Origin: a virus
Lineage: Duplodnaviria > Heunggongvirae > Uroviricota > Caudoviricetes
IMG/VR virus record: IMGVR_UViG_2537562231_000018
DNA: 24,218 nt
Reading direction: 5' to 3' (one strand)
Both the position numbers and the translations under genes were made by a program. Shown here piece after piece: positions 6,436 to 7,346 of this stretch. The notes below the pieces were generated by a model. That model was not told the origin of the DNA. It searched no databases and saw nothing but the letters and a program-made list of their open reading frames with translations. Every line of letters begins with the position of its first letter. Position 1 is the first letter of the stretch.

Positions 6436-6462
6436 AAAAAAAAGGCCGCGCCATGCGCAGCC
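6436..6462 (-). terminator. intrinsic terminator (minus-strand RNA GGCUGCGC-AUG-GCGCGGCC followed by U8)
   Basis: 8-bp GC-rich stem with one G-U pair, 3-nt loop, then eight U; lies between the TerB-like/membrane-peptide pair and nanS-p. Confidence 0.55.
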
Positions 6463-6663
6463 GAAAATAAAGGGATAACGATGATAGTTTGAGAAAAACA
6501 GAAATAACACTTTTGTGGCAAAGCATGGTGCCGGGTGCCTCCCGGTGAATTCAGTATCAGCACCTGAATCCGCGATTACCCCATATTCCTTCTTGCTGAT
6601 TGCCCCACCGCACAGGGGGATTCACCATGCAGAAGTGTTTTTAATAAACAGCAAACAAAAAAA

Positions 6664-6831
6664 TCAAGCATTATGCAGGCTGTTTCTTTTTATCACCGGC
6701 CACAGCAATACCATAATGCCGCAGACCAGCACCCCATCCGCCAGCACCGACATGATTCTGCTGGTGAAATCCACCATCACCACCAGAAACAGCAGGAGTG
6801 CAGCCACAGTCAGGCGCAGTTTTACCGTCAC
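6664..6831 (-). CDS. hypothetical 55-aa membrane protein (GTG start overlapping the upstream stop)
   Basis: VTVKLRLTVAALLLFLVVMVDFTSRIMSVLADGVLVCGIMVLLWPVIKRNSLHNA; GTGA start/stop overlap with the TerB-like frame; alternative internal ATG gives 37 aa. Confidence 0.3.
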   Translation of the reverse strand: MTVKLRLTVAALLLFLVVMVDFTSRIMSVLADGVLVCGIMVLLWPVIKRNSLHNA

Positions 6832-7223
6832 AGGTAATTCTCCAGACGAAGACCCAGAACACCGGCAATCTCTTCCAGCACCTTGCGCTCTTCCGGCTCA
6901 ATTTCGCCGTCTGCCTCCGCAATGGCCACCGCCACATCCAGCACATCTTCCGCTTCACGCGTATCGTGTTTCACATCCTCGATCTCACGTAACGCCGCAC
7001 GACGACCAGTTTTAAAGTTCGTATCCAGCTGACCGATAATGGTTGCGCTAATCGCATTAATTTCTGACGTAAACGCGTACAGCGCAGGCTGATTACGCAG
7101 TACCTGTTCGATCTTCGCTTTCTAGGAAGCCTCACATTCACCATCTGCACAGGCCACCAGGTATGCGGCGTTAATCACCGCCTGTGCCAGATCGCGTTTC
7201 TCAAACTTTCCTTTTTCCGGTTA
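6828..7223 (-). pseudogene. TerB-like protein remnant: no usable start, in-frame TAG at 7122..7124
   Basis: Minus-strand frame reads ..DLAQAVINAAYLVACADGECEAS-TAG-KAKIEQVLRNQPALYAFTSEINAISATIIGQLDTNFKTGRRAALREIEDVKHDTREAEDVLDVAVAIAEADGEIEPEERKVLEEIAGVLGLRLENYL; two A-x-A-D-G-x4-E-E helical repeats resemble the TerB tellurite-resistance family. No ATG in frame. Confidence 0.45.
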
Positions 7224-7323
7224 ACGTGACACACCAATAACTCTTGTCGAAAAAGCCAGCAAGCTGAAAGACCGGTATTCACAACCACCAGCGCGTTTAC
7301 TGTACTGGCGTGATTTCAGTCAT

Positions 7324-7346
7324 AAAAAAACCCGCCTGGCGACGGG
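7324..7346 (-). terminator. tR'-like intrinsic terminator downstream of pR'
   Basis: Minus-strand RNA CCCGUCGCCAGGCGGG followed by U7, about 45 to 65 nt downstream of the predicted late transcription start; same arrangement as the lambda pR'-6S-tR' unit. Confidence 0.6.

Follow-up and report, generated by a model that had tools for sequence, protein, structure and literature searches.

A tciA pseudogene, tciB and an STnc100-family small RNA gene in the probable late cargo slot of a lambdoid prophage

The 24,218-nucleotide (nt) stretch of viral DNA analysed here (IMG/VR record IMGVR_UViG_2537562231_000018; hereafter the window, to which all coordinates refer) contains the late region of a lambdoid prophage. 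Judging from gene order and family matches, the interval between the late antiterminator gene Q with its pR' and tR' sites and the nanS-p esterase gene is very probably the cargo ('moron') slot of the late operon. We are highly confident of the identity and history of its contents, which are a dead tciA gene, an intact tciB gene and a gene for a small RNA (sRNA) of the STnc100/PasD family; the minus strand carries every feature of the interval. An earlier note, written by a model from the sequence alone, had described the interval as a decayed two-gene cargo cassette of unknown original function. Decayed cargo it is, and intact homologous cassettes exist elsewhere, yet only tciA is decayed while tciB is intact; moreover, the cassette can be identified as the tciA-tciB pair known from phage P1 and from lambdoid phages, with a function assigned solely by homology.

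The feature is ordinary: a member of a known, named cassette that has become a pseudogene, in a slot that is likewise known and next to an sRNA of a known family. Taken alone it is of little importance, as identical DNA is annotated in RefSeq and the cassette has carried its name since the annotation of the P1 genome. The history of the two lesions in tciA and their frequency in Escherichia coli are described below, together with the alternatives that were weighed.

The tciA remnant and the intact tciB

The tciA frame is open from 7220 to 6831, between an upstream in-frame TAA (7223-7221) and a TGA stop (6830-6828), and reads PEKGKFEKRDLAQAVINAAYLVACADGECEAS-stop-KAKIEQ...AIAEADGEIEPEERKVLEEIAGVLGLRLENYL, its ending being also given as ...AEADGEIEPEERKVLEEIAGVLGLRLENYL. 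With the TAG read as Glu, the frame matches the Pfam family TerB (PF05099) at E=4.5e-14 and 53.2 bits (cut-off 24.4) over profile positions 2-109 of 118, and because of this E-value we regard it as lying far beyond chance. Both A-x-A-D-G-x4-E-E repeats that the earlier note had recognised can be read directly in the frame, as ACADGECEAS[TAG]K and AEADGEIEPEERK, and the corresponding PHROG family is PHROG 632. A protein search returned many intact homologues of 142-144 amino acids (aa), 90-98% identical, which start MFGIFKKK.RRAAAEIKKFEKRDLAQ... and have Glu at the position of the TAG; for the remnant as such the identity to intact proteins of this length is given as 96-98%. One intact homologue aligned with TerB of Klebsiella (PDB 2JXU; E=2e-7), Glu46 facing Glu. 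In the AlphaFold model of this type of protein (predicted local distance difference test, pLDDT, 87.9) the fold is all-helical, with ADG loops at residues 37-43 and 116-121 and a helix after each, and the cut made by the TAG falls after the first helix and loop.

That the amber codon replaces a conserved glutamate, as had been proposed, is borne out by the alignments, where GAG stands at this position in intact homologues and E46 is unchanged in all 28 homologues aligned, the most distant of which are 43% identical. The 1081-nt region is 100% identical in five complete genomes (E. coli D1 and four others), where the RefSeq annotation pipeline PGAP describes it as 'tellurite resistance TerB family protein, pseudogene, internal stop', followed by 'DUF3927 family protein'.

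The second gene, tciB, was correctly foreseen as a coupled 55-aa membrane peptide. Its GTG start overlaps the tciA TGA (CTGTGACG, GTGA) and has its own GGAG 8 nt upstream. The product matches Pfam DUF3927 (PF13064; E=1.7e-16, 60.4 bits, cut-off 25) and PHROG 1470, 'TciB-like' (E=1.8e-29), and its hydropathy profile peaks in two stretches, roughly residues 5-20 and 26-47. Being intact and equipped with its own Shine-Dalgarno sequence, tciB should be translatable whenever the region is transcribed.

Origin and frequency of the two lesions

Homology to intact tciA begins at about codon 18 (KFEKR, window ~7205), and the DNA further upstream is unrelated to tciA. By local blastn, about 50 IMG/VR loci have the 125-nt leader segment that adjoins the remnant, and there it precedes an intact tciA by 1.5-1.9 kilobases (kb). 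In the intact loci this leader is followed by a 65-aa open reading frame (ORF; no Pfam match), a 237-aa AraC-family gene, the transfer RNA (tRNA) genes tRNA-Met(CAT), tRNA-Arg(TCG) and tRNA-Arg(TCT), and then tciA (for this stretch see locus L024, 1007-2331, and also L021, L059 and L080). In the window, ...CCGGAAAAGGGAAAAAG/ACATG is joined to ...ATTAAAAAG/TTTGAG, the slashes marking the junction, at an AAAAAG microhomology. The position of the leader relative to intact tciA and the AAAAAG junction together indicate that a deletion removed two genes, the tRNAs, the ribosome-binding site and 17-18 codons. Hence, the missing start is due to a 1.5-1.9 kb deletion and not to point decay. The statement of the earlier note that the frame has no start codon holds insofar as there is no ATG and the true start is deleted; an in-frame GTG (the V of AVINAAY) does exist, though without a usable Shine-Dalgarno sequence. 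With its start and ribosome-binding site deleted and a TAG at codon 46, the tciA of the window is not an intact translatable gene, and full-length TciA cannot be made from it.

The ancestral order was Q, tR', the small ORF, the AraC-like gene, tRNA-Met/Arg/Arg, tciA, tciB, STnc100 and nanS-p. A deletion at AAAAAG took everything from the ribosome-binding site of the small ORF through tciA codon ~18, and the change from GAG to TAG at codon 46 was a second, separate event. Loci L013 and L014 have the same deletion junction with GAG, whereas in L016 and L018-L020 the TAG goes together with a complete 5' end, another Q type (PF06323) and tRNA genes upstream; in one IMG/VR locus the canonical ATG and the TAG stand together. 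Since all four combinations of the lesions exist, we conclude that they arose separately and that recombination has occurred between the two sites. Recombination among lambdoid prophages is well known.

Frequencies were surveyed in 5426 complete E. coli genomes. The exact 37-mer with TAG occurs at 962 places in 577 genomes, the same 37-mer with GAG at 164 places in 159 genomes, and the exact 39-mer across the deletion junction at 638 places in 502 genomes, while all tciA-like matches amount to 3059 places in 1105 genomes. A single genome may have as many as five copies of the TAG allele, which is found in O157:H7, O145 and O111:H8 as well as in human and dog isolates that are not Shiga toxin-producing E. 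coli (STEC). One nonsense allele and one deletion junction are thus each carried by about one in ten complete E. coli genomes, in many of them by more than one prophage, and such allele frequencies imply that recombination spreads even dead alleles among lambdoid prophages.

These counts also bear on the reality of the TAG. Homopolymer-type frameshifts elsewhere in the window, in Q and Rz/Rz1, might raise the suspicion that the TAG is a sequencing error, or even that the whole frame is a chance opening in non-coding DNA. The TAG is, however, a substitution and not an insertion or deletion, it recurs exactly in 577 independently assembled genomes, five of them identical over the whole 1081 nt, and the Pfam E-value given above belongs to the frame itself. 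An artefact is hardly conceivable, and we regard it as refuted by the allele counts, the identical genomes and the Pfam match. Sequencing error at the TAG is likewise rejected on the exact-allele counts, which establish that the TAG is real; the resequencing that the earlier note had asked for is unnecessary.

Selection on the cassette was estimated from the ratio of nonsynonymous to synonymous substitution rates (dN/dS). For intact tciA alleles it is 0.043 (36 unique sequences), which points to strong purifying selection, and for TAG alleles 0.35 (six unique), both being pairwise averages on recombining sequences and indicative only. Further, independent tciA lesions were found in other E. 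coli prophages: in L011 codon 20 is TAA, L012 has lost 1 nt, and in L004-L006 an extra A in a poly-A run moves the start to TTG. Nine of nine TAG loci have an intact tciB, and two IMG/VR loci have stops in tciB. Gene callers report broken tciA as 'TerB family' proteins of 116 aa and 120 aa, in clusters of 223 and 284 sequences.

Could the TAG allele nevertheless be functional? It is very common and in some prophages is kept with a complete 5' end, and it might act through low-level amber readthrough or through a split product, that is, an N-terminal peptide plus a 48-aa ORF that starts at GTG 6974 and holds the second ADG...E motif, an ORF that even matches a PHROG family of its own, phrog_3920. 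We consider this very unlikely. ARAGORN gave only tRNA-Met(CAT), Arg(TCG/TCT) and Lys(TTT) beside TAG alleles, none with the anticodon CUA, and no tRNA gene in the window; a phage-encoded amber suppressor was therefore rejected. In addition, the start codon and ribosome-binding site are deleted in the window as well, dN/dS is raised in the TAG alleles, and the GAGG before GTG 6974 lies only 2 nt away, a poor spacing. The 48-aa ORF itself (6828-6974, minus strand; MKHDTREAEDV...) corresponds to phrog_3920 (48 aa), a family that probably arose from gene calls that split broken tciA copies.

A more substantial alternative to plain decay is adaptive loss, according to which TciA imposes a cost on the lysogen or harms it; selection would then have favoured loss alleles and spread them through lambdoid prophages residing together, with tciB and the sRNA retained. 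Suggestive here are the five or more different lesions (5' deletion, TAG46, TAA20, 1-nt deletion, poly-A frameshift) that a small sample revealed in a gene of only 432 nt, and the strong purifying selection on intact alleles; moreover, TAG outnumbers GAG 962 to 164 on the same sequence background, it stands on three different 5' backgrounds with two Q types, and tciB is intact in all nine TAG loci. The lesions were found via short protein clusters, however, which biases the sample to broken copies, and clonal STEC lineages probably weigh heavily in the genome collection and would inflate the counts. Neutral decay in defective prophages, together with recombination, explains the same pattern, and two IMG/VR loci have stops in tciB as well. 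On balance we judge adaptive loss unlikely. It is also quite improbable that the amber allele and the 5' deletion, instead of being neutral remains, were favoured again and again because they inactivate a TerB-like protein that harms the lysogen, the useful cargo then being tciB and the STnc100-family sRNA; if true, loss of tciA would be a recurrent step in domesticating the lambdoid prophages of STEC and related E. coli.

The slot, its small RNA and the surrounding genes

In the window the late-region order is DUF968 (9681-8632), RusA (8619-8245), Q (8248-7428), the cargo interval and the sialate esterase gene (6349-4499), followed by holin, DUF1327, lysozyme, Rz/Rz1, a PerC-like gene and Nu1. 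The interval thereby lies between Q/pR'/tR' on one side and nanS-p and the lysis genes on the other, the place of stx in the Shiga toxin (Stx) 2 phage F004 and of the cargo in phage JLK-2012, and the nanS-p esterase gene has the position of yjhS in both. As the earlier note had it, this is the stx position between tR' and a second strong terminator: the gene order agrees with that of F004, and a terminator scan brackets the interval with two strong terminator-like minus-strand hairpins, at 7347-7330 and 6462-6444. Coordinates are collected in Table 1.

Table 1. Features of the cargo interval and its boundaries in the window
Feature	Coordinates	Strand	Basis or remark
nanS-p-type sialate O-acetylesterase gene, 616 aa	4499..6349	-	Pfam DUF1737 + SASA + DUF6645; downstream slot boundary
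Intrinsic terminator, GGCTGCGCATGGCGCGGCC then T8	6436..6462	-	Terminator scan: 8-bp stem, 7 G-C pairs
STnc100-family (PasD-related) sRNA gene	6487..6659	-	Rfam RF02076, 100.8 bits vs gathering 47, E=3e-21
tciB, intact 55-aa DUF3927 protein	6664..6831	-	Pfam PF13064, PHROG 1470
tciA pseudogene (TerB family), codons ~18-143 of 143	6828..7220	-	Pfam TerB; start codon and ribosome-binding site gone
In-frame amber, GAG to TAG at Glu46	7122..7124	-	Alignments with intact homologues
Leader segment up to deletion junction, 125 nt	7206-7330	-	Local blastn vs IMG/VR loci
tR'-like intrinsic terminator, ACCCGTCGCCAGGCGGGT then T7	7323..7347	-	Terminator scan: 7-bp stem, 5 G-C pairs, T-run
Putative pR'-like late promoter region	7385..7427	-	By eye: TTGATT, 16 nt, TG-n-TAAATT, then AACGAT
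Q late antiterminator gene, frameshifted	7428..8248	-	Pfam Antiterm PF03589, two copies, on both overlapping ORFs

What the earlier note had overlooked in the interval is the STnc100-family sRNA gene (6487-6659). The Rfam match comprises 173 bases, begins 5 nt past the tciB stop codon and covers model positions 1-206, and as judged by its score the gene is intact. The model's own 3' hairpin is absent from the alignment; the second terminator follows the match at a distance of some 25 nt from its 3' end and probably belongs to the sRNA, replacing the missing hairpin. The conserved core of this sRNA is common to 325 phage records, mostly Stx2a- and Stx1a-converting phages. STnc100 has been located just downstream of stx2B (PMC12370729) and overlaps the Hfq-binding sRNA EcOnc27/sRNA103, related copies of which are reported as discrete, Hfq-associated transcripts in O157 strains (PMC12711010). 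It is also related to PasD, and PasD2 adjoins a sialate esterase gene, with Q (PF03589) among its conserved neighbours in enteropathogenic E. coli (bioRxiv 10.64898/2026.05.13.724894). Should any part of the slot still be expressed, this sRNA gene would be the best candidate.

Q of the window measures 821 nt, compared with 822 nt for the intact 273-aa Q of loci L001, L002 and L014; the gap is at Q nt 481, where one A has been lost from an A6 run near 7768, which leaves the ORFs 8248-7748 and 7817-7428. Close relatives have an intact Q, that of L001 with two differences. As Q is frameshifted in the window, late transcription through the slot is probably weak. A pR'-like promoter may be placed at about 7422-7393, and the AACGAT that follows its -10 element (window 7385-7400), in the putative initially transcribed region, presumably corresponds to the pause element on which sigma70 acts at lambda pR'. 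This stretch is overlapped by a small hairpin (7394-7378) that ends in a T-run. In the leader between pR' and tR', Rfam matches to mmgR/suhB (20.5 bits) and anti-hemB (16.6 bits) are far under their gathering scores and were dismissed.

Several observations concern the remainder of the window. The Rz/Rz1 frames (2110-2576, minus strand) seem to be swapped by an insertion or deletion near 2270-2290: the ORF 2172-2576 is an Rz N-terminus (Pfam Rz positions 1-76) fused to an Rz1 C-terminus (positions 4-40), and other frames hold the Rz C-terminus (2110-2271) and the Rz1 N-terminus (2264-2356). The lysis genes are followed, ahead of Nu1, by a gene for a PerC-family (Pch-like) transcriptional activator (1256-1645, minus strand; Pfam PerC, E=2e-31). 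An IS66-family transposase gene (512 aa; 13427-14965, plus strand) within the early/nin region is a further sign of a degenerate element. Two more RNAs score above their Rfam gathering scores, the sok antitoxin RNA of a hok/sok module upstream of the DUF968 gene (10272-10446, minus strand; 114.8 bits) and DicF (20114-20165, plus strand; 75 bits). By megablast of the whole window, no complete genome covers more than 65% of it.

Possible role of the intact cassette and comparison with known systems

Intact TciA would be a TerB-domain protein of the cytoplasm, helical throughout, in which a basic N-terminal tail accompanies the two acidic ADG...E loops. Its partner at the inner membrane would be TciB, a small membrane protein, much as TerB has a partner in TerC, and the cassette would be expressed on the late transcript under Q antitermination. 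Phenotypes of the ter operon comprise tellurite resistance, phage inhibition and colicin resistance (PMC9603915), and a passage in PMC11003894, citing Turkovicova 2016, reports that TerB interacts with the membrane protein TerC. We put this mechanism forward tentatively, as an analogy that may well turn out otherwise.

A number of points weigh against the picture drawn so far, or against its functional extension. The frameshift in Q marks either a defective prophage or a homopolymer assembly error. The pR'-like promoter was recognised by eye, and a consensus scan of 6300-7500 returned no minus-strand promoter. A Foldseek search of the TciA model against the PDB gave weak matches, the top one being 2H5N (E=0.027, probability 1.00, template modelling score 0.54-0.62). 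The fold of 2H5N is probably TerB-like. The family assignment is based on the sequence instead. For tciB, dN/dS is 0.34, which is moderately low and, like the other ratios, indicative only, and there are very few substitutions within the TAG loci. Any phenotype of tciAB, whether tellurite or colicin resistance, phage exclusion or an effect on cell division, would be assigned by homology only. Furthermore, P1 tciABC was non-essential for lytic growth in a CRISPR interference screen (PMC10695390). Since tciAB is nevertheless common and conserved (dN/dS of about 0.04 in intact alleles, with the same reservation) and its function is assigned by homology, it appears a reasonable target for a simple genetic study.

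Among known systems, the tciA-tciB-tciC cassette of P1 likewise consists of a TerB-family protein of ~141-143 aa followed by an overlapping DUF3927 gene of ~54-55 aa. The remnant shares 38.9% identity with P1 TciA (E=2e-19), and TciB of the window 51% with P1 TciB (E=8e-12); the basic N-terminus is conserved (MLGILKKKFRKAA in P1, MFGIFKKKTRRAA here), and the P1 cassette also has tRNA genes upstream. The third gene of P1 type is absent from the window, where tblastn with P1 TciC gave nothing better than E=0.4. The two cassettes differ in their control, as that of P1 belongs to the C1-controlled ban operon and that of the window to a Q-dependent late operon, and in the window tciA is dead through the 5' deletion and the TAG.

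TerB encoded in the Klebsiella terZABCDEF operon (PDB 2JXU) is a more distant relative of TciA. It belongs to the same Pfam family and is all-helical, with residues 14-137 aligned including the acidic motifs and Glu46, but it is only ~20% identical, the window has no ter context (terC, terD, terZ), and the partner is a 55-aa DUF3927 protein instead of TerC. TerB is paired with DUF3927 repeatedly, in P1, in lambdoid phages and in a Salmonella jumbo phage, which lends support to the membrane-partner mechanism; the pairing is absent from the Pseudomonas and Vibrio phage TerB loci examined. In the PADLOC collection of known anti-phage defence systems, TciA had a sub-threshold match only (E=0.0028, PDC-S48) and TciB none.

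The closest counterparts are the intact cassettes of lambdoid phages, which the earlier note had proposed to look for in other prophages and which were indeed found, coding and in the same slot. In JLK-2012 (JQ347801) the order is Q, tRNA-Asn/Thr/Gly, tciA (143 aa), tciB, yjhS (nanS-p) and S-R-Rz, with the genes named TciA and TciB, and the same cassette order is seen in E. coli and IMG/VR loci. Over the retained part, the intact cassettes (JLK-2012; clusters P0004, P0008 and P0010) are 92-97% identical to the window in DNA or protein, and the JLK-2012 sequence downstream of tciB is 93% identical to the STnc100 region. Relative to them the window has TAG46, and it has lost the AraC-like gene, the tRNA genes and, from tciA itself, the ribosome-binding site and codons 1 to ~18.

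Finally, the Stx2 phage F004 has the order Q, tRNA-Met/Arg/Arg, stx2A, stx2B, STnc100 (75 nt after stx2B) and yjhS/nanS-p. This stx2AB-STnc100 module and the window share the slot, its downstream boundary, the sRNA core and the closing helix GCAUGGUG...CACCAUGC; in the window the cargo is tciAB and not Shiga toxin, the 3' hairpin/terminator of the sRNA is different and its middle section shorter. The shared STnc100 and nanS-p downstream place tciAB exactly in the stx slot, and tciAB and stx2AB are thus alternative cargoes of one slot with a common downstream end.

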